From Chthonomonadaceae bacterium (GTDB lineage Bacteria; Armatimonadota; Chthonomonadetes; Chthonomonadales; Chthonomonadaceae), in the NCBI GenBank assembly GCA_035650735.1, contig DASRGZ010000059.1, positions 1 through 64,000 on the forward strand: a DNA stretch of 64,000 bases, written 5' to 3'. The translations under genes and the position numbers were made by a program. Shown here one piece after another: positions 10,120-24,229 of this stretch; positions within the stretch are counted from its first letter, which is position 1, and each line of letters starts with the position of its first letter. The notes beneath the pieces were generated by a model. It searched no databases. It was not told the DNA's origin and saw only the letters and a program-made list of their open reading frames with translations.

Positions 10120-11004
10120 ATGCCTGCCACGGGCACGATCTTAGATGCGACGTTCTTAAAGAAGCTGGAGCGGCTTTCCCTGGCGACCAAGCGGCCTTTT
10201 GCCGGCCAGATGAAGGGCGAAAAGCGCTCCGTGAAGCGGGGAACCAGCGTGGAGTTCGCCGACTACCGCGAATACGCCCTCGGCGACGACCTGCGCTACG
10301 TGGACTGGAACACCGCCGCGCGCCTGGAGAAGATGTTCCTCAAGCTGTTTGTGGAGGAGGAAGACCTCTTCCTGGCACTGCTGCCGGATACCAGCCGCAG
10401 CATGGACTTCGGCGACCCGAAAAAGCTGCACTATGCCATCCAACTGGCGGCGGCGCTCGGCTACATCGGCCTTTCCAACTACGACCGCGTGAGCGTCCAG
10501 CCGTATGCCGCCGCGCTGGGCAAGCCGCTTCCCACGCAGCGCGGCAAGGCAGGCGTGCTGCCGTTCTTCGCCTACCTGGAACAGCTAAAAGCCGGAGGCA
10601 CGACCTCCTTCGCCACGGCGCTGCACCGCTTTGCCGCCTCTGTGCGGTACAAGGGCGTGGCTATCGTCTTCTCGGATTTCTTCGATCCCAACTGGCAGGA
10701 GGGGCTGAAGGCGCTGCTGGCGCGCGGCTTTCAAGTGGCGGTGCTGCATATCCTCTCGGAAGAGGAGATCCATCCGACGCTGCGCGGCGACCTGCGCATC
10801 ATAGATAGCGAGACGGGGGAAAGCAAAGAGATGAGCGTCAATCCACAACTCCTGACGCGCTATCAGCAGACCTTTGACGCCTTCTGCGCCGAGATCGAAA
10901 CGTTCTGCCACCGCTACGGCATTGACTACCTGCGCGCCTCCACGGCCCTGCCCGTCGAGGACCTGGTGTTGAAGTACCTGCGCCGGGGCGGATTGGTGAA
11001 ATAG
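10120..11004 (+). CDS. DUF58 (vWA-like) protein
   Basis: GTSVEFADYREYALGDDLRYVDWN, MIDAS-like DTSRSM, FSDF. Confidence 0.92.
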   Translation: MPATGTILDATFLKKLERLSLATKRPFAGQMKGEKRSVKRGTSVEFADYREYALGDDLRYVDWNTAARLEKMFLKLFVEEEDLFLALLPDTSRSMDFGDPKKLHYAIQLAAALGYIGLSNYDRVSVQPYAAALGKPLPTQRGKAGVLPFFAYLEQLKAGGTTSFATALHRFAASVRYKGVAIVFSDFFDPNWQEGLKALLARGFQVAVLHILSEEEIHPTLRGDLRIIDSETGESKEMSVNPQLLTRYQQTFDAFCAEIETFCHRYGIDYLRASTALPVEDLVLKYLRRGGLVK

Positions 11005-11013
11005 GGAGCCACA

Positions 11014-12726
11014 ATGAAAGCCCTGCGTACCGTCAATATGATCTGGGAGCGGCGTTACCGGGGGACGTACCCGGTGGCGCGCTTTGGCCTGGCCGATGAC
11101 GGCACGGTGGTTCTGGCCGTGCCCCGCCCGCTGGAGGCCCGCGCCTACGACCTGACGCACCTGCGCCCGGACGGCAGCGCCGAAGTCCGGGCCGGCTTCT
11201 CCGTCGAAACGCTGCTCAAGCTGGAGGCCACGCCCTATGCCGACGATTTCCTGGGCATGACCGCCGACGACATCTATCTGTTTCGGGCCGGAAGCAAGAG
11301 CCGTTTCCTGGGCGAGCGCCGCATCTCCTATGTGGACGCGGCCCTGAGCGCCGACGGGCAGCGCCTGGCGGTCGGCTTCTCGGATATCGCGGGCGCAAGC
11401 TACATGCTGGCTTACGGCGAGATCGGGGGGCGTGTCCTCTGGACGCGGGACATGGACTCGGCCTTATCGGCGGTCACCATCAGCCGGGATGGCCGACAGA
11501 TCGTCGCCGGCGCGGAGGATGGGACGATCTGGCGGATGGACGCCGCGATGCAGGATATCTGGCGGTTCATGCAGGAGGAGGCCGTGCGGGCGCTGGCCTG
11601 TTCCGCCGACGGCAGCGCGGTCGCCTACGGCACGGCGGGCGGGGCGGTTGGCCTGATTGATGCGGAGGGGGCGCGGCGCTGGGAGGTGCGCGTAACCGGC
11701 GAGATCGCCGCGCTGGCGCTCTCCGGCGAGGGAACGCTCTGCGCGGTGCTGTGCTGTCCCGCAGAGGGAGGAGGGACGCCGCGCCTCCTCTGCCTGGTCG
11801 GGGAGGGACAGGTCGGCTGGGAGTATGCAGCGGAGAAGCGGCTGGTCGGCCTGTCGGTTTCGGCCAACGGCCTGTATCTGGCGGCGAGCGCGCGGGACGG
11901 CACGCTGGCGGTGTATGAGGTGGTGCCGGGCGAGGCGCAGGGCGTCGTCGGCGGGGCCGGATTGCCGGGCGCGACCGCGCTGGCCCGGTCCGGGGAACAG
12001 GCGGAGGCGGGCGACCTGGAGGGCGCGGTGAGGACGCTGCGCGCTGCACTGGAGGCCAACCCGGCGGATTGCGCGCTGTGCGAGGCGCTGATCGCGCGGC
12101 GGCAGGAGTGGCTTTCGGCGGTGCTGGCGGCGGCAGAGGCGCAGATGGAGGCGGGGGACCTGGATGCCGCCGTAGCCGCGCTGGAATCGGCGCTGCGCCT
12201 GGAACCGCAGGAGTCTTCCGTCGTTTCCCGGCTGGAGGCGGCGCGTCTGCGGCGGGCCGAGCGCCTGCTAGAGACGGCGCGCAGCCACGCGGCTGCCGGA
12301 GAGGGAGAGGCCGCCGAAGCTGCGCTATTGCAGGCCATTGCCGATGCGCCGCTACGGGTCGAGGCGCGTCGGGAACTGGGCGCTTTGCGGCAAGAGCGCG
12401 CCCAGGAGGCAGCCGCTGAGGCCGAGCGCCTGCTGGCCGAGGGCGACCTGGAGGGAGGAGTCGCCGCGCTGGAACGGGCGCAATCTCTGGCGCCCACCCC
12501 GGAAATCGACGAGAAATTGGCCCGCGCGCAGGTGGCGCACGAGTTCATGCAGGGAATCGCGTTCTACAACCAGAAGCGGTATCATGAGGCCGTTTTCCAG
12601 TTTAAGAAGGTGCTGGCGCGTGACCCCGAACACGGCGAAGCCCGGCGCTACCTGGGCTATGCGCAGAAGTTCGCGCAGGATACACTGACCGGCGATCTTA
12701 CCGACCGCTTCAGCCGGCTGGAGTGA
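11014..12726 (+). CDS. WD40/PQQ-type beta-propeller plus C-terminal TPR protein
   Basis: Repeated (L/I)S(A/R)DG blades in the N-half; helical TPR repeats such as YHEAVFQFKKVLARDPEHGEARRYL in the C-half; no signal peptide. Confidence 0.8.
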   Translation: MKALRTVNMIWERRYRGTYPVARFGLADDGTVVLAVPRPLEARAYDLTHLRPDGSAEVRAGFSVETLLKLEATPYADDFLGMTADDIYLFRAGSKSRFLGERRISYVDAALSADGQRLAVGFSDIAGASYMLAYGEIGGRVLWTRDMDSALSAVTISRDGRQIVAGAEDGTIWRMDAAMQDIWRFMQEEAVRALACSADGSAVAYGTAGGAVGLIDAEGARRWEVRVTGEIAALALSGEGTLCAVLCCPAEGGGTPRLLCLVGEGQVGWEYAAEKRLVGLSVSANGLYLAASARDGTLAVYEVVPGEAQGVVGGAGLPGATALARSGEQAEAGDLEGAVRTLRAALEANPADCALCEALIARRQEWLSAVLAAAEAQMEAGDLDAAVAALESALRLEPQESSVVSRLEAARLRRAERLLETARSHAAAGEGEAAEAALLQAIADAPLRVEARRELGALRQERAQEAAAEAERLLAEGDLEGGVAALERAQSLAPTPEIDEKLARAQVAHEFMQGIAFYNQKRYHEAVFQFKKVLARDPEHGEARRYLGYAQKFAQDTLTGDLTDRFSRLE

Positions 12727-14007: not shown

Positions 14008-14976
14008 ATGCCATTCTGGGATCGCCTGTTTAAAATCAACGTGCCGTCCACTTACCACTGGGAGCGTGTCTTTGCGCGTGCCCATGCCCTGGAACAGCGC
14101 GGGGAAGACCCGCGCCGCAACCCGGACATCGGCGAGGGGCTGGGCCTGCTCTGGGAGGAGAACCTGATCGCCCCGTCCGAATCGGCGACCTCGGCAGACC
14201 AGGCTTTCCTGCGGGATTTTGTCTGGTATCTGCGTCAGCGCACCCCCAAACCGCCGCCTGCGCCGGAAGCGCGATATCAGGCGGTGGTGGAAGCGCTGCG
14301 GGACGCCATCCGAGCCAACACGGAGGAGTTACGGCTGACGGAGGAGCCCTTCCCAATAGATAATCTGCGGCGGGCCATCTGGATGGTCGAGCAGTTGCAG
14401 GCGGCGGAGCTGCACGCTGTCTGCTGCGAACTGCTCGTGACGGTGAACGCCACCCTGATTCGGGAGCGGCAGGGCAATCGCGTTCCCCCATTGGAAAGTC
14501 TGCGCACGGAGCTGCACGGCTGCCTGGCGGCGCTGCCCCCGGACGCGATGCCGCGCTTCTGGGAGATGCTGCAAGCGGAAAGCACCTCCGAGGATTTCTG
14601 GCCGGTGGCCGCGCGGATGCGCGACCGGAGGGCGATGCCCTTCCTGCTGGAGGCGCTGCCGGTTGTGCCGCCGGATGGCCAGGCGATAATCGCCGTGACG
14701 CTGGGCAATATCGGCGATACGCGGGCCTTGCCGGCCTTGCAGCAGTTAGCCGCAGAGGAGACAAGCCTGGTGGCGCCCATTGCGAAGGAAGCCGTAGCGC
14801 GTATCCTGCGCACGAGCGGGGACGACGCCGCGCTGCTGCTGCGCCCCACCGACGCGCCCCACGCGGGCAGCGCCTCGAAAACGCTGCTGCGTCCTGCCGC
14901 CGCAACGCCCGCAGCGGCCAGCCGTCCCGAAGAATTGCTGCGTTCCAGCAACATGCCCCTGGAAAAGGAGCCGTGA
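14008..14976 (+). CDS. HEAT-repeat protein with LLRP tail, paralog 2
   Basis: LAALPPDAMPRFW, AMPFLLEAL, LGNIGDTRALPAL; tail LLLRP/TLLRP/ELLRS. Confidence 0.8.
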   Translation: MPFWDRLFKINVPSTYHWERVFARAHALEQRGEDPRRNPDIGEGLGLLWEENLIAPSESATSADQAFLRDFVWYLRQRTPKPPPAPEARYQAVVEALRDAIRANTEELRLTEEPFPIDNLRRAIWMVEQLQAAELHAVCCELLVTVNATLIRERQGNRVPPLESLRTELHGCLAALPPDAMPRFWEMLQAESTSEDFWPVAARMRDRRAMPFLLEALPVVPPDGQAIIAVTLGNIGDTRALPALQQLAAEETSLVAPIAKEAVARILRTSGDDAALLLRPTDAPHAGSASKTLLRPAAATPAAASRPEELLRSSNMPLEKEP

Positions 14977-14982
14977 CGATCC

Positions 14983-16053
14983 GTGGAGGCCCACGATGAC
15001 ATACGCATCTATCTAAAAGGCACGGAAACGCACCTGGCGCGCGCGTATATCGCGGCCGGGCGCGAGGCGCTGGCGAGTCCGCGCGCGTCACGGGAGCACG
15101 CGGAGGCGCGCACCGTCCCCGGCAGCCGCATCGCCCGGCTTCTGGCCCTGCTCTGGCACCCGGAGGCCGACATCCGCAAAGCGGCGGCGCTGGCCCTGGC
15201 GGGCGGGAATCGGGAATCGCGCTACGTGCCCCAGTACGGCCACTTCGCCAGCGCGTTCTTGAGTTATCTAACGAGCCACGCCCCGCACGCCCCGGCCAGC
15301 CCGGCGGAGCGATACGCGGCGGTCGTCCATGCCCTGCGCGTGCTCCTGGATCGCAACGCCAGCGATATCCGCGCCATGGGCAACATGAGCTACTCCTTCC
15401 TGGGCAGCGCGCTCTATCTGGCCCTGCTATATACGTGCCGGGATGTGATAGAGGCGGTACGCCGCCTGCGCGTCTCCGCTGCCCACACGGAGCTATGCCG
15501 CCTGCTCTGGCACCTATCGCATGTGAATCTCACGCGCCGGCTCAACAGCGAGGACTGGGTGACGCTGGTGCAGACGGCGTGCGCCGCCTTTGCCGCGTTG
15601 CCGCCCGACGAGATACCGGACTTCTGGCACAGCCTGATGCACCGCTCGCTGCCGCGTCGCCTGGCGGTCGCGCCGGTGCTGAGCCATCTGCGCGATGACT
15701 GCGCCGTGCCCTACCTGCTCCATGCGCTGAGGGAACAGCCGCCGTGCATCGCCCAGCCCATCATCGAATGCCTGGGACGGTTGGGCGACCCGCGCGCCCT
15801 GGCGCTGCTCCAGTGCATCGTCGAGGGGAGAGATCGCCTGCTGCGCAACCATGCCCGGCTCGCCATCGCCGCCATCGGGCGCGCCCACGCCAACGGACCG
15901 GCCCGCACGCTGCTGCGCCCTCTGGAGACCAATCCAGACGCCGATCCGGCCAGCCTGCTGCGCCCGGCCCACCCCACCGGGGCGATGGAACCGCCGGAAG
16001 AGATGCTGCGCGTCCCCGATCCGCCCTCCGACCCTGCCGGTGAAGAGCCATGA
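14983..16053 (+). CDS. HEAT-repeat protein with LLRP tail, paralog 3
   Basis: FAALPPDEIPDFW, AVPYLLHAL, LGRLGDPRALALL; tail TLLRP/SLLRP/EMLRV. Confidence 0.8.
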   Translation: MEAHDDIRIYLKGTETHLARAYIAAGREALASPRASREHAEARTVPGSRIARLLALLWHPEADIRKAAALALAGGNRESRYVPQYGHFASAFLSYLTSHAPHAPASPAERYAAVVHALRVLLDRNASDIRAMGNMSYSFLGSALYLALLYTCRDVIEAVRRLRVSAAHTELCRLLWHLSHVNLTRRLNSEDWVTLVQTACAAFAALPPDEIPDFWHSLMHRSLPRRLAVAPVLSHLRDDCAVPYLLHALREQPPCIAQPIIECLGRLGDPRALALLQCIVEGRDRLLRNHARLAIAAIGRAHANGPARTLLRPLETNPDADPASLLRPAHPTGAMEPPEEMLRVPDPPSDPAGEEP

Positions 16054-17336
16054 GCGATCCCAGGCCAGAATCATTTCATTCTGACCCCCACCCCCAAGAA
16101 CAGGGGAGGGGAGAGGCCCTCACCCCCAACCCCTCTCCCGCAGCGCGGGAGAGGGGGAACGGAGAAGCGGGGTTACCCCCTTCCCTAGCGAGCGACGAGC
16201 GGCCAGGGAAGGGGACCGGGGGATTAGGTGCAACTCAGGAGAGAGGAGACTTGGCTTCTCCTCTCCCCTCTCCTTACGAAGGAGAGGGGCCGGGGGGGAG
16301 GTCTTCTAGGGAGAGGGCCACAGGCGTACAGGCGCAGAGCGAGGAGGAGCGCGGCGTCTGGTCTCCGGCGCTCTCCTTTGGCGAGCCGGAGGAAACCCGA
16401 CCCGTCCCTGCCCCTCCGCAGGAGGTGCAGCTGCGCTGGGACGAGCGGCTGATCACGCTCTGGAACGCGCGCCTGAGCGTCGCCATCCAGGCCGCCGGGG
16501 AACTCTATGCCGTCGATAGCGAGGACCTGCTGCCTCTGGAGGACGTGGCCGACGATCTCTCCACGCAGTTCTGGCGCCTCTTGAGCAGCCAGCAGACAAG
16601 CCTGCCGCCCTCGGCCCCGGCCCGCTACTATGCGGTGGTCAGGGCGGTCTGGCAGGTATTGCAGGAGGTCCGTCAGGGGCTGGCGACGCCCGAGCTGCCG
16701 GCGAAGCTGGCGGTGGCGCTGCGCCCGGTACGCAAGCTGCGCCCCGGAATCCTGACGGCGGAAGTCTGCGCGGCGCTCTACTACTATCATCGCGGCGTCT
16801 GGACACCCTACCTGACCAAGCCGGAGCTCTGGATAATTCGGACGGCCCTGGCAAAAACCATTGCCGCGCTGCCGCCGGATGAAATGGACGCTTTCTGGGA
16901 GAACCTGCAAAGCTCCGATACGCTGATTCGCGACGCTATGCGGCTGGGCCTGACGTTCCTGCGCTCGGCTCATGCCGTGCCGCACCTGCTGCGCGGGCTG
17001 GAGCGGATTCCCGATAACGCCACCCGCGCCGCCATCGTGGATTGCCTGGAGGAGATCGCTGACCCGCGCGCGCTGGCCCCGCTGATACGGCTGCGCCAGG
17101 AAACCGCGCAGTATGATTGGCCGCTCTCCCGCCAGATCGCTCGCGCCATTCGCATCATCGAGCAGCAGAATCGCGACAATGGCCACCGCACGCTGCTGCG
17201 TCCCTCGGCGACGCCGGCAGATGACGAAGAGGCGCTGCTGCGCCCTGTCACGGCGGCGCCTGATACCCGGCAAGCTGCTGAAGCCGACCGCGCTCAATTG
17301 CTGCGCCCGGCTTCTGAGGAAGACGAGAAGACCTGA
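16050..17336 (+). CDS. HEAT-repeat protein with LLRP tail, paralog 4 (repeat-derived N-terminus)
   Basis: IAALPPDEMDAFW, AVPHLLRGL, LEEIADPRALAPL; tail TLLRP/ALLRP/QLLRP; ATGA overlap with the upstream gene. Confidence 0.78.
   Translation: MSDPRPESFHSDPHPQEQGRGEALTPNPSPAARERGNGEAGLPPSLASDERPGKGTGGLGATQERGDLASPLPSPYEGEGPGGRSSRERATGVQAQSEEERGVWSPALSFGEPEETRPVPAPPQEVQLRWDERLITLWNARLSVAIQAAGELYAVDSEDLLPLEDVADDLSTQFWRLLSSQQTSLPPSAPARYYAVVRAVWQVLQEVRQGLATPELPAKLAVALRPVRKLRPGILTAEVCAALYYYHRGVWTPYLTKPELWIIRTALAKTIAALPPDEMDAFWENLQSSDTLIRDAMRLGLTFLRSAHAVPHLLRGLERIPDNATRAAIVDCLEEIADPRALAPLIRLRQETAQYDWPLSRQIARAIRIIEQQNRDNGHRTLLRPSATPADDEEALLRPVTAAPDTRQAAEADRAQLLRPASEEDEKT
16117..16301. repeat. Three REP-like CCCCTCTCC...GGAGAGGGG hairpin elements inside a coding region
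   Basis: Copies at about 16117-16156, 16176-16228 and 16263-16301; same family as the intergenic copies at 21809, 22361, 26820 and ~32805. Confidence 0.8.
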
Positions 17337-17354
17337 TCTCCGGCCCGCACGCCT

Positions 17355-18467
17355 ATGAGCTGGAAGGATACAGAGGGAAAAGAGAGAGGCGAAAGTGCGG
17401 CCCGAAGCCGCCTCCAACGCCTGGAAGAGCTTCGCCTGGACCTTAGCCGCAAGAGCGCGGCCCGCCGCGCCTATGCTGTCGAGACGCTGCTCTCCCTGCT
17501 CTGGGTAGAAGAGGGCCGGGAGCGGCTGGCGGTCGCCTGTGCTCTCTGCGGCTACCCGCCGCAGGTTGGCAAGGCGGAAACGCCGCTCTGCGTCACGCGG
17601 CTCTGTTCCCGCCTGAGCCGCACCGTGCCCGACGACGATTTGCCGCTCCCACCCCCGGCCGCAGAGCGCATCGCCTGGGCCGGGCGCGCGGTCACGGCCC
17701 TGCTCACCGAGTCGCTGGATGCCCTCAAGGCGGCGGCGCGGGAGCAGACCGAGACGAATGCCCGTATCATCCACCGCGAAGCCAGGGTCTTGCAGGATGC
17801 GCTCGCGCTGGCGTGGTGTCTGCGCTTTGCCGAGACAGCCGAGCCGTGCGTGCGCCTGCTGCGTTTCCTGCCTGCCGAGCTCGTGCGCGAGCCAGGGCCG
17901 CTGGCGCACTACGTCCCCTTGCTGCGGGAGGCGGCGGCGCACGCACTGGGAGCCCTCGCGCCGGATGACCTCTCCGCCCTCTGGGACGCGATGGGCAGCC
18001 GGGACGCCGCCGCCCGCCGCGACCTGCTGCCGGCGCTGGACTATCTGCACGACCCGCGCGCCGTTCCCTACCTTACGCGCCTGCTGGAACGCCGCAACGA
18101 ATGGCCGGAGGGCGAGCTAATCGGCTGGTTCGTCGTGCGGGCCTTTGAGCGCATCGGCGACAAACGCGCGCTCCCGGCCTTGCGGCGGTTGGAGGCGCAG
18201 GGCCGACGTGGCACGCTGCACCAGGCGATGCGTCGGTTCCTACGCGGGTCCGAGGCGGGCTTAAGTTCCGATCTGAGGCTTGAGGTACAGCGCGTCATTC
18301 GGAGTCTGGAGCAGGGGAAGGACTCGCGCCAACGCAAAGAGTTGCTGCGGCCCGCCCAATCCCAGACCGGAGAACTGCTGCGGCCCGCCGTCGCCGCGCC
18401 GGAGGAGGAAGATTGGCAGGAGCGCGCCCAACTTCTACGTCCGGAGGAGGCTTCCCCCGAATTCTGA
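17355..18467 (+). CDS. HEAT-repeat protein with LLRP tail, paralog 5
   Basis: LGALAPDDLSALW, AVPYLTRLL, FERIGDKRALPAL; tail ELLRP/ELLRP/QLLRP. Confidence 0.8.
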   Translation: MSWKDTEGKERGESAARSRLQRLEELRLDLSRKSAARRAYAVETLLSLLWVEEGRERLAVACALCGYPPQVGKAETPLCVTRLCSRLSRTVPDDDLPLPPPAAERIAWAGRAVTALLTESLDALKAAAREQTETNARIIHREARVLQDALALAWCLRFAETAEPCVRLLRFLPAELVREPGPLAHYVPLLREAAAHALGALAPDDLSALWDAMGSRDAAARRDLLPALDYLHDPRAVPYLTRLLERRNEWPEGELIGWFVVRAFERIGDKRALPALRRLEAQGRRGTLHQAMRRFLRGSEAGLSSDLRLEVQRVIRSLEQGKDSRQRKELLRPAQSQTGELLRPAVAAPEEEDWQERAQLLRPEEASPEF

Positions 18468-19581: not shown

Positions 19582-20193
19582 TCAATGGGAATCAGCAATG
19601 ATCTTGCTGCCGCTGGCGCTCTGGACATGAAGATGGAAGCGTCTCAGGCTGGGAGCCGTTTCCAGGCGTGCGGCAAAATCTCGGAGGGAAAGCGTACTGA
19701 GCAACACTTCCGTTTCATAAATCCGAGCATTGTAGTCGCCTGGATTGATTTCCTGGACGCCCTCCAGCTTGCTTAACGCCTTTTCGAGCGCATTAGCCAG
19801 CGAAACGCTGCCGATGCCGCGCACTTCGAGTTCGATATGGCGAGTGGGACTGAGGGCGAGCTTATCGAGCTTGCGCATCAGTCCCTCGCTTATCTCTTCG
19901 CCAAGCTGCTGCAAGCAGATTTTGCTTGCCAATTCCTCCGTCGCATCCGGGGAGCCAGTCTTATGGAGCGCATCGGAGTAGATTTTCTCGCCGGTATCCA
20001 CGCGGATCGCTTTTAGCTCCAGGCGTCCCCGGCACTGGACACGCTCGAGGCGTCCCAGGTCCGTATCCACCATGCGGCGCGTGGCCTCCTGAGTGAACGC
20101 TTCCCCCGTCACCAGAATATCGGCCCCGAACCGGCGTCCTATCTGTATGGCCTCCTTTTTGGCATCCGCGCGGCCTTGGAGGATACGGTCCAT
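19582..20193 (-). CDS. Hypothetical protein, probably the C-terminal fragment of a CsgG/FlgT-like protein
   Basis: IGRRFGADILVTGEA...LKAIRVDTGE pattern; starts mid-domain just after an in-frame TAG and lacks a signal peptide. Confidence 0.5.
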   Translation of the reverse strand: MDRILQGRADAKKEAIQIGRRFGADILVTGEAFTQEATRRMVDTDLGRLERVQCRGRLELKAIRVDTGEKIYSDALHKTGSPDATEELASKICLQQLGEEISEGLMRKLDKLALSPTRHIELEVRGIGSVSLANALEKALSKLEGVQEINPGDYNARIYETEVLLSTLSLRDFAARLETAPSLRRFHLHVQSASGSKIIADSH

Positions 20194-20276: not shown

Positions 20277-21638
20277 TCAGGCGGCGTGCGGCAGGCGTTG
20301 CGGCGCGGCATCCGAAGGAGCGCTCTTGCTCTGAGCCAGCGCGGCAAGCGGTGCAGGCTCCCGGGCGTCGCGCGGATAGATCGCCGATCCCAGACCCAGC
20401 CGCAGGGGCGCGCGGCCCGCATGCCAGCCCTGCTCCTCCAGCCAATCACCCAGGGCAACGGCCAGACGCGCCTGGACGACCCGCACCTTCTCGCCCGTGA
20501 ACGGCAAGATCAGGGCAAAGGTATCCTCGCTATAACGGGTCAGGATGTCCACGCGGCGCACCGTCTGGCGGATGATCTCCGCCGTGCCCAGCACCGCGTT
20601 GTCCGCCTTGAGCGTTCCCTGGGCGCGGGCAAAGCTCTCCAGCCCGCCCAGCACCACGAACAGGAGCGCCAATTCGCTCTCCATCCGGCTCGCCCGGCTC
20701 AATTCCTCTTCCAGGCGGCTCTCGAAATAGTTGCAGTTATAGAGCCGGGTCTGGCTATCCACGACGGAGACCTGATCGAGCAGCGCCTGCTGCTCCTCCA
20801 GGCGCTTGCGCATCTGCGCCATCTTCATCTGCGCGTCGCGCAACTCGTCCGTGACCAGGATCTTCTTGAGCTTGCGGGTGGAGTTGCGCAGGATATGCGA
20901 GACGTAATTACAGGAGATGCCAAGCTGCCGGGCTATCTCGGTCTGGTTCAAATCCTTGTAATAGAACTCGAAGAGGACCGTCTGCTCCAGGTCTTTGAGC
21001 TTATCCATCGCCGTTTCCAGCACGATCCGGTCTTCGACGGGCAGTTGGAAGGAGACGGCGACATCCGCGCCGGCCTGCCGCTCCATATCAATGGCCCCGC
21101 CGCCATCGTCTTCGCTTTCGCTGCCACCGTCAATGGATTGGACTTTGAAGACCTCCCGCGTGGTCAGCATCTCCGTGACCGTCTCTTCGGACAGGCCCAT
21201 CATCTGGGCTATCTCGGCGTTGGTGGGCGGACGGCTGAACTGTTGGGCCAGCGAGTCGATGACCCGCGTCATCCTCTGGTTCAACTCCTGCAGCCAGGCC
21301 GGTTCCTTGATGATCTTGCCCCGGTCGCGCAGGTAGTGCTTGATCTGTCCAATGATAAAATGAGTGGCGTAGGTCGAAAATTTAACGTTCTTGGTTGGGT
21401 CGTAGAGATCGATAGCCGTAATCAGGCCGATATAGCCTTCCTGCGCCAGATCCTCGACCGGCTCGGCGGAGCCGGAGAAGCGGCGAGCCACGCTCTCCAC
21501 CAGGCCGGTATACCGCAGCACGATCCGGTCGCGCAGGGCAGAATTGCCGGTCTGCCGGTACTCCAGCAGCAGCTGCAAAACCTCTTCTTCCGTGCGCTTG
21601 CGTTGGGCCTGATTCGGTTTTGGGTTTTCTATGAGCAT
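20277..21638 (-). CDS. SigB/SigF-type sigma-70 factor fused to a degenerate GGDEF domain
   Basis: Region 2 EDLAQEGYIGLITAIDLYDP...FSTYA...IKHYLRD; region 4 LNQTEIARQLGISCNYVS; C-terminal DSQTRLYN...RRVDILTRYSEDTF. Confidence 0.9.
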   Translation of the reverse strand: MLIENPKPNQAQRKRTEEEVLQLLLEYRQTGNSALRDRIVLRYTGLVESVARRFSGSAEPVEDLAQEGYIGLITAIDLYDPTKNVKFSTYATHFIIGQIKHYLRDRGKIIKEPAWLQELNQRMTRVIDSLAQQFSRPPTNAEIAQMMGLSEETVTEMLTTREVFKVQSIDGGSESEDDGGGAIDMERQAGADVAVSFQLPVEDRIVLETAMDKLKDLEQTVLFEFYYKDLNQTEIARQLGISCNYVSHILRNSTRKLKKILVTDELRDAQMKMAQMRKRLEEQQALLDQVSVVDSQTRLYNCNYFESRLEEELSRASRMESELALLFVVLGGLESFARAQGTLKADNAVLGTAEIIRQTVRRVDILTRYSEDTFALILPFTGEKVRVVQARLAVALGDWLEEQGWHAGRAPLRLGLGSAIYPRDAREPAPLAALAQSKSAPSDAAPQRLPHAA

Positions 21639-21808
21639 CTTCCTTAACTTTGGTCACACGGCTGCGTTGGCGTTTATGGCGCGAAGCCTCAAGGCCGCAC
21701 TCATTATTGCCCAAAGCGCCCGGTAGCTTTAGCGTTACGGCGCGCCCATAGGCCCGCAGGACCTCTTCCGCGTGCAACCAGCGTCCTCTGCGGCTCGCCG
21801 ACTCTTTT

Positions 21809-22042
21809 CTCCCCTCTCCTTGCGAAGGAGAGGGAGCAGGGGGTGAGGTCTCTCCCCTCTCCCGCAGCGTGGATCGCCAGGCGGAGGGCTGTCGCAAGGC
21901 AGAGCCGTGTCGCAAGGTGTCGCTAGGCGGAGCCGGAGGCCGTAACTCCGGCGACCCTAAGCAGTGGCCCAACCATTGCAGGCGCGACCCTTGCAGTCCA
22001 TTGCAGGGCCGACCCTGGCAGTAGGGGACAGGGGGTGAGGGC
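21809..22042. repeat. Composite REP-like element interrupted by ~150 bp of nested short repeats
   Basis: CTCCCCTCTCCTTGCGAAGGAGAGGG...CCCCTCTCCCGCAGCGTGG, then the insert, then AGGGGACAGGGGGTGAGGGC. Confidence 0.7.
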
Positions 22043-22237
22043 TACATGAGAAAACAGGAGGACTCTGTGGGCGTAGAGGAAAGGAAGGAACAGCGAGGGG
22101 CTCTTGCCGGGGCGTTAGACAGCGAAAATTTGCAGCCCAGCCCTGCGTATAGAATAGAGAAAAACGGGCCTCGGTCGGCCATTGCGCCTCCGTTTATGCC
22201 AGCGCATGTGAAATGGTACACAACCGAGCAGGAATCG

Positions 22238-22266
22238 TTGACAATCGTTTCGAAAAGTGTGATAAT
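22238..22266 (+). promoter_or_regulatory. Sigma-70-type promoter upstream of pspA
   Basis: TTGACA-17 bp-GATAAT with extended -10 TG. Confidence 0.65.
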
Positions 22267-22360
22267 ACAATTTCATAGGAACAAAGCGGGCTGCGCCAGA
22301 TAGGGTGTAAATAGCCTGCAGAGTAGCGAAACAACGACCGAAGACACAATTCACAATTGG

Positions 22361-22432
22361 CCCTCACCCCGGCCTTGTGGGAGAGGGGAGAGACCTCGCC
22401 CCCAGCCCCTCTCCTTCGTAAGGAAAGGGGAG
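22361..22432. repeat. Composite REP-like element, inverted relative to the 21809 copy
   Basis: Reverse complement matches 21809-21863 with 5 differences in 55 nt. Confidence 0.75.
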
Positions 22433-22588
22433 TTTGAAAACACAAGAATTCCTCGCACGCGCGGGGGTGAACCGAGATCGCTATGAGGGCTTGACGCCGA
22501 GCCCGCGCGCAGACCGCGCGGTTGCCCGGAGAGGCGCGCTCGCGCCGCGCCGTCCGCTAGAGCCAGGCGCGAAAGGAGACCGGCTGCA

Positions 22589-23407
22589 ATGTTTAAACGC
22601 ATAATGCGCTACCTACGGGCACTGATAATGGGTAAGCTCGATCAATGGGAAGACCCAGAACTGATCATTAACGAAGCCGTTCGCGAGATGAAGGAAAACC
22701 AGATCAAGAACCGCGAGCTGGCCGTGCAAGCCATTACCCAGAAGAATAACCTGCAGGCCGAGGTAGACAAGGAAGAGCGGCTTATCGCCGAGTTGGAGCG
22801 CAAGGCGACCCTGGCCCTGCAATCCGGCAACCGGGAACTCGCCAAGCAGTTCCTGAAAGAAAGGGCCCTGCATGATCAGACCCTGCAGAGCATGAAGGCC
22901 AACCTGGCTGCCGCCACCGAAGCAGCCGAAAAGGTCAAGCAAGCCATCCGTCAGGAAGAGGAGCGCATTCGCGTGCGCACCGCCGAGGCGCTGGCCATGA
23001 AGGCCAACATGAAGCAGGCCCAGATCCAGATCAAGATCAATAAGGCCCTCGACCAGTTCCAGTTCAGCGAGAACGAGCAGCAGTGGTCGCACGTGCAGGA
23101 GCGCATCCAGACCATGCAATCGGAGGCCTCGGCCCGCGCGGAAGTCGCCAATACCAGCATCGACTCGAAGCTGCGCGAGATGGAGGTCTCCCAGATGGAT
23201 GCAGAGGCCGAGCGCCAGCTGGCCGAGCTGGAGGCCAAGATGGCTATCGGCGGCACCACCGCCACCAACTACGCCACCGCCAATGTCCAGCAGGTGCAGA
23301 CGGTCGGCGGCGGTGCCGTCAACTCCAACGGCGCTGGCGGCGCGCAGGAGAGCGAGCTCGACCGGCAGCTGCGCGAGCTCGAAGCCAAGCTGGGCGGCCA
23401 GAAGTAA
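22589..23407 (+). CDS. pspA: PspA/IM30 (bacterial ESCRT-III) family protein with a Vipp1-like C-terminal extension
   Basis: N-terminal amphipathic helix, EDPELII, long coiled coils, GNRELAK; extra C-terminal helix after a Gly/Asn-rich linker. Confidence 0.9.
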   Translation: MFKRIMRYLRALIMGKLDQWEDPELIINEAVREMKENQIKNRELAVQAITQKNNLQAEVDKEERLIAELERKATLALQSGNRELAKQFLKERALHDQTLQSMKANLAAATEAAEKVKQAIRQEEERIRVRTAEALAMKANMKQAQIQIKINKALDQFQFSENEQQWSHVQERIQTMQSEASARAEVANTSIDSKLREMEVSQMDAEAERQLAELEAKMAIGGTTATNYATANVQQVQTVGGGAVNSNGAGGAQESELDRQLRELEAKLGGQK

Positions 23408-23513
23408 TCGGTAGAAGGCAGGGCATTGGGGCGATGGCGTGGGCAGGGCCTCAATGCCCTGTTTGCGCCTGCCGCCCGGTATCGCCCGGCAGCACCCCAC
23501 CTAACCGTGGTTT

Positions 23514-23583
23514 AAGGCGGAAGGAGGAAGGAGGAAGAGAGCAAGAGCTTTTCTTCATCCTTCATCCTTCCTCCTTCCGCCTT
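23514..23583. repeat. Inverted heptamer repeats (GGAAGGA / TTCATCC) forming a hairpin
   Basis: AAGGCGGAAGGAGGAAGGAGGAAG ... CTTCATCCTTCATCCTTCCTCCTTCCGCCTT. Confidence 0.7.
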
Positions 23584-23644
23584 TCAAGAGGCAGCCACGC
23601 TTTCGCGCTGTGCCATCTATTTCCCGAAATTTGGAATCAATTCC

Positions 23645-24229
23645 ATGAGTATCCCACAACGTCTCTATCGTATTGCCAAGTCTAAACTCAACGAGCTTAA
23701 GGATCGCATCGAGCAGCTCGACGCAGAAACCCAGCTGGACCCGGAAACCGAGCGGAAGCTCCAGCAGGCCCAGTATCGCCGGGATGCCCGCCGCGAACTG
23801 GAGGATGCGCTCTCGACGCCGGCCCCGGCTCCGCCTCCCGCCTCGTCTCCGCCACATCCGAGCGACCGTTCTACCGTTCCCTCGCAGCCGTCCCTGCCGC
23901 GCCGCACGCCGGAAGAGATCGCGCGCGGGACCTTTTCTAAGACCGCTCCTCCGCCCACCAGCGCGCCCACCACAACCACGCCAACGGCCCAATCAGACCC
24001 GCTGGCCTACCACTACAGGCTGCTCGGACTGGAGCCGGGAGCCGATTGGGTCGCCGTGCAGAACGCCTATAACAACCTGGCAGCCCGCGCCGAGCCGGGC
24101 CGTTTTGCCGCCGGTTCCGAGGAGGAGCGCACGGCCCAGGAGATCCGCAAGCGCCTGGATGCTTCTTACCAGGTGCTGCGGGATGCCCTGGACCCGACCG
24201 CGCGCCGTTTCGATCTTATCGAGTACTGA
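23645..24229 (+). CDS. Protein with a C-terminal J-domain-like fold lacking HPD
   Basis: YRLLGLEPGADWVAVQNAYNNLAARAEPGRF...LDASYQVL; Pro-rich linker. Confidence 0.7.
   Translation: MSIPQRLYRIAKSKLNELKDRIEQLDAETQLDPETERKLQQAQYRRDARRELEDALSTPAPAPPPASSPPHPSDRSTVPSQPSLPRRTPEEIARGTFSKTAPPPTSAPTTTTPTAQSDPLAYHYRLLGLEPGADWVAVQNAYNNLAARAEPGRFAAGSEEERTAQEIRKRLDASYQVLRDALDPTARRFDLIEY

Follow-up and report, generated by a model that had tools for sequence, protein, structure and literature searches.

A group-3 sigma factor fused to a degenerate GGDEF domain with a conserved I-site: a predicted c-di-GMP receptor in Armatimonadota

Introduction

Can a sigma factor carry its own receptor for the second messenger cyclic di-guanosine monophosphate (c-di-GMP)? 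The question is raised by a gene in a 64,000-nucleotide (nt) stretch of DNA from a Chthonomonadaceae bacterium of the phylum Armatimonadota (contig DASRGZ010000059.1 of assembly GCA_035650735.1, positions 1 to 64,000; hereafter the window), which encodes, in one reading frame, a sigma factor followed by a degenerate GGDEF domain. To our knowledge, in all cases studied so far c-di-GMP acts on transcription by way of activators, repressors or riboswitches, or, where one sigma factor is concerned, by way of a separate anti-sigma factor, and our search of open-access papers and bioRxiv (subscription journals lying outside its coverage) found no published sigma-GGDEF fusion. Here we describe a computational analysis of the gene, its relatives and their genomic surroundings. 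The fused sigma factor is predicted from its sequence to bind c-di-GMP itself, the messenger switching sigma activity with no separate anti-sigma factor, and we consider this reading somewhat likelier to be right than wrong.

Results

The fusion gene is present in a single copy in the genome, and its ATG start codon has an AAGGAAG ribosome-binding site just 5' of it; all four Pfam domains of the 453-residue product exceed their curated cut-offs (Table 1). With regions 2, 3 and 4 each recognised in this way, the N-terminal part is indeed the complete SigB/F-like sigma factor that a preliminary description of the same DNA had proposed. The top NCBIfam model is that for SigB/SigF/SigG (TIGR02980, 182.6 bits, under its cut-off of 234.35); the SigF model NF005644 scores 171.6-173 bits, under its cut-off of 261, compared with at most 105 bits on the other sigma factors of the same genome, and the FliA_WhiG model about 118-120 bits, under its cut-off of 189.6. 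Judged by these scores, the sigma part is a complete group-3 sigma factor of a distinct subfamily. Residues S242, N244, Y245, V246, S247 and H248 of the region 4.2 recognition helix, GISCNYVSHILRN, are invariant in an alignment of 88 rows (A1: the query, 20 locus proteins and 67 of the 119 homologs introduced below, chosen so as to be widely spread), and a disordered acidic loop (residues 166-196), with a predicted local distance difference test score (pLDDT) below 50 in the AlphaFold2 model, follows region 3.

The C-terminal part adopts, in the same model, a GGDEF fold, with pLDDT mostly above 90; Foldseek matches it to the T. maritima GGDEF structures 4urs/4urg with template modelling (TM) scores of 0.76-0.78 and root-mean-square deviations of 2.6-3.0. 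Residue equivalences were taken from HMMER alignments to solved GGDEF domains, and conservation was followed in two sets of sequences, i.e. an alignment of 120 close homologs (the query and 119 distinct best matches, P0002 having been dropped as identical to the query) and a phylum-wide set of 41 (sequences from 40 loci across the phylum and that of the window, at 38-70% identity). The motif RYSEDTF aligns with RYGGDEF/RYGGEEF of the solved domains, SEDTF standing where the GG[DE]EF signature of the active site (A-site) would be, and the A-site is degenerate in every sequence of both sets. The metal-site Asp pair is replaced by V329 and G331, the Lys by E334, and the guanine-binding Asn and Asp by A337 and R338. 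To go by these losses, the domain is catalytically dead and not a cyclase.

The residues of the inhibitory site (I-site), at which GGDEF domains hold c-di-GMP, have been kept. As described in the cited accounts, the I-site of WspR consists of R242xxD245 plus R198 supplied by the partner GGDEF domain (PMC2270323), and that of PleD of R359, D362 and R390 plus R313 from the partner domain (PMC7288161). RRVD (residues 361-364) aligns with REVD of structure 6d9m and with R242-S-S-D245 of WspR, R318 takes the place of WspR R198, and R391 follows R361 by 30 residues, compared with the 31 that separate R359 from R390 in PleD. Among the 120 close homologs R361 and D364 are each kept in 120, R391 in 119 and R318 in 118, while signature positions 370-373 and A-site columns 329-340 vary freely; in the phylum-wide set R361, D364 and R391 are each present in 41/41 and R318 in 39/41. 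Alignment A1 has only 11 invariant columns in the GGDEF part (D294, Y300, Y304, R308, L309, E311, E312, R361, D364, P379 and R391), three of which (R361, D364 and R391) are I-site residues. This pattern points to selection acting on just those four side chains of the I-site that hold the ligand. The preliminary description had likewise read the domain as a GGDEF fold with RYSEDTF in place of RYGG(D/E)EF, a lost metal-binding segment and, in the RRVD five residues ahead of the signature, the RxxD of an I-site; fold searches and alignments agree with it on each count, and the conservation of the Arg and Asp in homologs, which it had put forward as a check, is complete in both sets. Degenerate GGDEF domains bearing RxxD are established receptors, PopA and PelD being examples given in the cited source (PMC12564702).

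Between the two parts lies a helical linker. In the AlphaFold2 model, which was built on A1 (mean pLDDT 84.9), the individual sigma and GGDEF domains are modelled with confidence, and a single helix spanning residues 243-290 leads from region 4.2 into the linker; the predicted TM score (pTM) of 0.42 means that the interdomain arrangement is not confident. Hydrophobic positions 266, 269, 273, 276, 280 and 287 of the linker keep a 3-4 heptad spacing across the 120 homologs. Foldseek places the sigma part with SigB and SigA in holoenzyme structures (e.g. 8x6g_H), and the best stalked neighbour of the GGDEF domain with its linker is the GCN4-zipper-WspR chimera 3i5c (TM 0.68), to whose GCN4 zipper the linker aligns. 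The coiled-coil linker of the preliminary description is, in the model, a single heptad-patterned helix, with the reservation that linker length varies between families, as discussed below.

The preliminary description had proposed a one-component sigma factor gated by c-di-GMP, perhaps switched by dimerisation; all the sequence-based checks that it named turned out in its favour, which lends the proposal partial support. From these features a mechanism can be put forward. An intercalated c-di-GMP dimer would be bound by R361, D364 and R391 of one domain and by R318 of a second, in the manner of PleD and WspR, and bridging of this kind would lock two fusion chains together. Since the last helix of region 4 runs on into the linker helix without a break, locking would be felt there, and would alter whether region 4 reaches the flap of RNA polymerase and the -35 element. 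That high c-di-GMP would switch the sigma factor off is a guess, made by analogy with other motility regulators.

A second layer of control is suggested by the C-terminus. The protein ends in Ala-Ala in 119/120 close homologs, on a disordered tail that is otherwise unconserved, compared with 86 of the 3941 long non-overlapping open reading frames (ORFs) of the genome (2.2%); phylum-wide, 24/41 sequences share the ending, including all nine from the window's order. The tag of the genome's own transfer-messenger RNA (tmRNA), ANTQQYALAA, ends in ALAA, and clpP adjoins clpX (613 bits) on contig C111. Because the ending is conserved, the ssrA tag ends in ALAA and the clpP-clpX pair is present, the fused sigma factor is predicted to be, in the window's clade, a ClpXP substrate by way of a degron-like tail. 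It could be argued that control is exerted mainly by proteolysis, with the sigma factor kept short-lived by ClpXP through its ssrA-like tail while the dead GGDEF domain mainly exposes or hides that tail or docks an adaptor, perhaps on c-di-GMP; one chain would then merge what PopA and CtrA do as two proteins, and CtrA, too, ends in Ala-Ala. The contrast between the near-invariant ending and the remainder of the tail, the low pLDDT of the tail and the presence of the protease and of an alike tag all fit this alternative, as do two precedents as described in their sources: sigma-AntA of Streptomyces, an orphan sigma factor whose degradation by ClpXP depends on a C-terminal Ala-Ala (PMC7142297), and the PopA-dependent degradation of CtrA by ClpXP (PMC12564702). 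We nevertheless hold it to be unlikely, because a C-terminal Ala-Ala is by itself no proof of ClpX recognition, and because 17/41 phylum-wide sequences lack the ending though they keep the I-site, so that the degron was added at the level of a clade and does not explain why the fusion exists.

The c-di-GMP reading may also be combined with turnover, which in the window's clade would proceed through the Ala-Ala tail and might be gated by ligand. The sigma factor would then be its own second-messenger receptor and its own timer, in that c-di-GMP would cross-link two copies by way of their dead GGDEF domains and so switch the factor, and the same event would hide the tail from ClpXP or expose it to the protease. 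A single protein, governed by the flagellar sigma-28 cascade or encoded where pilus operons end, would in this way choose between motile and attached life throughout a phylum that has hardly been studied; we regard this extension as possible though rather doubtful.

Other proteins of the genome share the ending. Three GGDEF-domain proteins and another sigma-70 family paralog are among the 86 long ORFs that end in Ala-Ala (C142:50147-52084, C152:17745-20657, C152:26790-29369 and C76:53046-54320), and turnover of the ClpXP type may be a wider theme in the c-di-GMP and sigma network of the organism. Aragorn additionally made a second, overlapping 'permuted' tmRNA call with a 25-residue tag at 10890-11757, which is probably false.

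Is a ligand needed at all? The GGDEF-like domain could instead be a ligand-free module for dimerisation or for docking to a cyclase, a pilus ATPase or some other partner, its I-site residues being kept for structural or protein-contact reasons. The linker does resemble the dimerising stalk of cyclases, and degenerate GGDEF domains that do not bind are known, as in the Campylobacter case of the cited report (PMC9239204). In that case, as the same report describes it, the I-site is degenerate too, unlike that of the fusion (PMC9239204). Moreover, the residues that do not vary here are the very four whose side chains hold c-di-GMP in PleD and WspR; the whole A-site and the neighbouring columns drift. 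We rate this second alternative as quite improbable.

A further possibility is that the pocket binds another nucleotide, for example 3'3'-cGAMP (the cyclic dinucleotide of GMP and AMP), the linear dinucleotide pGpG or guanosine triphosphate (GTP). In favour of this, no solved domain is closer in sequence than the Geobacter GGDEF domain of 6d9m, which we take to belong to the Hypr class, whose members make cGAMP. The residues with which a substrate site would hold GTP are lost, however, and a pocket formed by RxxD and an Arg is the known c-di-GMP site in the structures described (PMC2270323, PMC7288161). The genome also has c-di-GMP enzymes of its own, in the form of canonical GGDEF and EAL proteins (10 GGDEF matches, six of them above 140 bits, and one EAL match). 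Taken together, these points leave binding of another nucleotide very unlikely.

The idea that faulty assembly or gene calling produced the fusion, or that the gene is a pseudogene in decay, has almost no chance of being correct, given a frame uninterrupted throughout 453 codons, a sigma-GGDEF junction bridged with 0 or 1 differences by contigs of four runs from three studies (some of which may be the source itself), and the Sigma70 r2+r3+r4+GGDEF architecture of all 120 best matches. The preliminary description had named an assembly artefact, absent from reads and relatives, as a danger to its reading and a domain-architecture search as a check, and on neither point was anything found to trouble it. 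Matches to the fusion protein (E up to 1e-40) occur in 302 of 401 sampled Armatimonadota genomes; among the matches listed, residues of about 12-440 are covered at identities down to 37%, and the best ones span both domains. A scan of named genome records gave 291 relatives, and in the best 80 of these the named ones are all Armatimonadota (Chthonomonadaceae, Chthonomonadales, a metagenome-assembled genome of Chthonomonas calidirosea, and Fimbriimonadales), the rest being labelled just 'bacterium'. In a representative library, 319 proteins match at E up to 1e-30, and many of these carry the fusion in full length, at 33-69% identity. The fusion is as old as the phylum Armatimonadota and is not an artefact.

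Variants exist at the edges of this family. Ten related group-3 sigma factors of 398-559 residues (P0137, P0191, P0192, P0195, P0197, P0208, P0210, P0217, P0218 and P0234) carry C-terminal extensions of ~130-200 residues with no Pfam GGDEF match at E up to 1e-5, which may represent receptor domains that have diverged strongly, or fusions of another kind. Loci L142-L144, from genomes of family f6 without a FliA match, hold a diverged form whose C-terminal domain matches weakly; it keeps R-x-x-D (RGID, RDVD and RGVD) ahead of the degenerate signature, and no sigma-28-like site lies 5' of it.

The upstream region connects the gene with motility. Sigma-28 (FliA)-type promoters are bipartite, with a TAAA-N15-GCCGATAA-like consensus. 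The site ahead of the fusion gene (Table 1) is an exact match, compared with 0.13 sites expected by chance at up to two mismatches. In 108 non-redundant 250-nt regions upstream of homologs the -10 core GNC[AG]ATAA is present on the coding strand in 44 and on the opposite strand in 6; the promoter has the form CTAAAG-N15-(CT)GGCAATAAT in the window's order and GTAAAAA-N15-TGCCGATAATACC, the classical sigma-28 form, in one other clade. When a weight matrix made from 36 of these sites was scanned over the genome, 24 sites reached at least 14 bits, the top one being the fusion gene's own promoter, and others were found to precede ORFs named by Pfam as CsrA, flagellar rod protein, FliM and FlhA (csrA, flgB, fliM and flhA). 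Two FliA/WhiG sigma factors exceed the cut-off in this genome; the promoter may be read by such a FliA paralog, which would place the gene in the FliA cascade, or by the fused sigma factor itself, i.e. by autoregulation. Beyond the promoter, blastn of the 1-kb upstream region against the loci of relatives found no conserved DNA, and an Rfam scan of the whole window gave no match.

The distribution of the fusion within the window's order follows that of flagellar genes. FliA is found in 37/37 genomes with the fusion and in 1/16 without it, and FlhA in 33/37 and 1/16, respectively. The fusion-less genomes fall into seven genera, six of which are without fusion, FliA and FlhA throughout, so that the co-occurrence reflects a handful of loss events only.

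A feature of the 5' untranslated region (5'UTR) of many relatives deserves separate mention. These relatives (L055-L059, L061, L062, L064, L068, L070, L072, L084, L087, L122 and others) have a hairpin 20-40 nt ahead of the fusion start codon that is not evident in the window (21639-21702). Its stem changes in sequence between genomes yet stays complementary, and its near-constant loop, CGTACGATGGGAACGAAGG, with GGA at the apex, is followed by an AAGGAG-type ribosome site. The hairpin might serve as a site for a CsrA-type protein to bind; in this genome csrA is itself preceded by a sigma-28-type promoter. RNAalifold on 25 candidates returned no consensus structure, as the stems are out of register in the alignment. 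Folded singly, most of the 25, a set that includes an L122 segment cut at the wrong place, form hairpins (mean z -1.43 against flank shuffles, with 7/25 below -2).

In other classes the genomic setting points to a different motility apparatus. At 22 of 40 loci from other genomes pilC lies immediately upstream of the fusion gene on the same strand, many of these loci having pilT, pilB (with an MshEN domain) and a secretin gene further upstream; a divergent pilT-pilC pair adjoins the gene at 2/40 loci, and no pilus gene occurs within 6 kb at 16/40, including all eight of the window's order. In these other classes the fusion is the last gene of a type IV pilus operon. The sigma-28-type motif is present on the operon strand at 3 of the 22 pilus-linked loci and on the other strand at none. 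Since the gene has its own sigma-28-type promoter and occurs, within the window's order, only in flagellar lineages, and elsewhere stands at the end of pilus operons, the fusion protein is most likely a motility-linked regulator.

Two further observations touch on the pilus operons. The pilB ATPase genes with MshEN in operons that end with the fusion gene are found at L020:1763-3487, at L022:487-2310 and at equivalent positions; the MshEN domain is described as a high-affinity c-di-GMP receptor (PMC5013675), and such operons would accordingly hold two predicted c-di-GMP receptors. A search of the genome for the cyanobacterial SigF promoter, TAGGC-N13-18-GGTAA, gave 33 matches; 29 of these have an ORF downstream, in no case a pilin-like one, so this candidate was set aside.

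In the window itself the neighbouring genes are unrelated to the fusion gene: they comprise a 203-residue ORF downstream, the genes of an ATP-binding cassette (ABC) permease and of four HEAT-repeat proteins, and, divergently upstream, those of PspA/IM30 and of a DnaJ-like protein. As the preliminary description had stated, there is no adjacent anti-sigma gene; Pfam detected no anti-sigma-like domain, RsbW/SpoIIAB-type and STAS domains included, in the ten neighbouring ORFs scanned. An RsiG-like gene is likewise not adjacent, no search of the genome for RsiG having been made. The 203-residue ORF (19582-20193) was rejected as part of the system, having no Pfam match and being adjacent in none of 11 relatives.

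Other peculiarities of the window may be recorded here. The PspA/IM30 gene and the DnaJ-like gene with its long Pro/Ser/Thr-rich linker (22589-24229, plus strand) form a pair that did not adjoin the fusion gene in any relative examined; the four consecutive HEAT-repeat genes (14008-18467, plus strand) have Glu/Pro-rich tails ending in LLRP-like repeats. GC-rich hairpin repeats of the type cccctctcc...ggagagggg (21800-22450) make up much of the 950 bp upstream of the fusion gene, and the same repeats occur inside ORFs around 16050-16400, where they are read through as SPLP/GEG peptides; they have the look of repetitive extragenic palindromes (REP) or of miniature inverted-repeat transposable elements (MITE).

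Table 1. Coordinates in the window of the fusion gene, its predicted domains and sites, and its promoter-like element.
Feature	Positions	Strand	Basis or remark
Whole gene, sigma factor plus degenerate GGDEF domain	20277..21638	(-)	ORF and translation; 453 residues plus stop
Sigma70_r2 (PF04542), residues 40-108	21315..21521	(-)	Pfam E 4.4e-19
Sigma70_r3 (PF04539), residues 118-182	21093..21287	(-)	Pfam E 1.4e-10
Sigma70_r4 (PF04545), residues 210-259	20862..21011	(-)	Pfam E 6.1e-15
Helical linker, residues 260-291	20766..20861	(-)	AlphaFold2 helix 243-290, heptad pattern
Degenerate GGDEF domain (PF00990), residues 292-433	20340..20765	(-)	Pfam E 1.5e-16, 61 bits against a cut-off of 23.8
R318, secondary I-site Arg (WspR R198)	20685..20687	(-)	Chain numbering, alignment to 3bre
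Lost A-site segment FVVLGGLESFARAQG	20616..20660	(-)	Replaces metal, Lys, Asn and Asp residues; alignment to 6d9m
RRVD, RxxD core of the I-site (R361, D364)	20547..20558	(-)	Aligned to WspR and 6d9m
RYSEDTF (368-374), degenerate GG[DE]EF signature	20517..20537	(-)	GG[DE]EF in 0/41 and 0/120 homologs
R391, third primary I-site residue by position	20466..20468	(-)	Spacing compared with PleD R390
Disordered tail KSAPSDAAPQRLPHAA, residues 438-453, ending in Ala-Ala (20280-20285)	20280..20327	(-)	pLDDT 55-58
Sigma-28-type promoter-like site TAAAG-N15-GGCAATAAT	21703..21731	(-)	-10 box ends 64 nt 5' of the ATG

Discussion

Several observations weigh against a c-di-GMP-gated, motility-linked sigma factor, or limit how widely such a reading can be applied. 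At the pocket, the equivalence of R391 to PleD R390 is by spacing only, and R318 is replaced by F or S in two of the 41 phylum-wide sequences (L026 and L027). From family to family the length of the linker changes by -17 to +8 residues, and as these differences are not whole heptads they argue against one rigid coiled-coil register phylum-wide. The model, moreover, has low interdomain confidence. The absence of Ala-Ala from 17/41 sequences means that proteolysis is not a universal control of the family. With regard to the flagellar association, related genomes are not independent, so that the co-occurrence counts overstate the number of events, and several families depart from the pattern altogether: fusion-like proteins and FliA are found, respectively, in 26/27 and 0/27 genomes of family f6, in 0/13 and 13/13 of f25, in 1/11 and 11/11 of f21, and in 0/4 and 4/4 of f15. 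In f6, whose genomes have no FliA, the fused form was seen in three of the five examined, none with the promoter motif 5' of the gene. The flagellar link is not strict at the level of the phylum. Finally, one pair of RsbW-like and STAS genes lies elsewhere in the genome, on contig C184, and may provide an anti-sigma factor acting in trans.

Comparison with known systems shows which elements of the proposed switch have precedents. PopA of Caulobacter and PelD of Pseudomonas are alike to the fusion in having a dead A-site with an intact RxxD, the GGDEF fold reading the ligand and not making it, and PopA feeds ClpXP proteolysis of a transcription factor, as the cited text describes (PMC12564702). 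In these two, a separate protein or a membrane synthase provides the output, whereas in the fusion the sigma factor in the same chain would do so; the degron-like tail, unlike the arrangement with PopA, sits on the receptor itself. The RsiG-(c-di-GMP)-WhiG complex of Streptomyces, according to the account cited, provides a case of a group-3 sigma factor, one of the FliA/WhiG kind, under c-di-GMP control (PMC7005675), the ligand there being held by the separate, sequestering anti-sigma factor RsiG, whereas in the fusion the predicted pocket lies in the sigma chain. PleD and WspR share with the fusion's domain the fold, the helical stalk before the GGDEF domain and the same four I-site residues, i.e. 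RxxD, a downstream Arg and a helix-1 Arg supplied to the partner domain; they are active, product-inhibited cyclases with receiver domains, whereas the fusion has a sigma factor in that place and none of the GG[DE]EF, metal or substrate residues.

Two sigma factors are likewise instructive. Sigma-AntA is, like the fusion, described as having no cognate anti-sigma factor, and ends in Ala-Ala in 67 of 71 orthologues, compared with 119/120 here (PMC7142297); it is a two-domain extracytoplasmic function (ECF) sigma factor with no sensor domain, and its degradation by ClpXP is demonstrated, while that of the fusion is only predicted. Cyanobacterial SigF is a SigB/F-like group-3 sigma factor that the cited study ties to type IV pili and motility (PMC2532724); unlike the fusion, it has no GGDEF domain. 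A sigma factor and a c-di-GMP receptor in one chain are combined by none of PopA, PelD, PleD, WspR, RsiG-WhiG, sigma-AntA and SigF.

If the c-di-GMP reading is correct, the fusion would represent the shortest known path from c-di-GMP to promoter choice, and a way of controlling sigma factors that dispenses with an anti-sigma factor. Three features go beyond the preliminary description and change the picture that it gave: the conserved Ala-Ala at the C-terminus, the co-occurrence with flagellar genes together with a sigma-28-type promoter, and, in other classes, the position in type IV pilus operons. The family is large, old and phylum-spanning, and occurs in named cultured species, e.g. in a record of Chthonomonas calidirosea. 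Its ties to flagella and to type IV pili offer a first handle on the regulation of motility in Armatimonadota.

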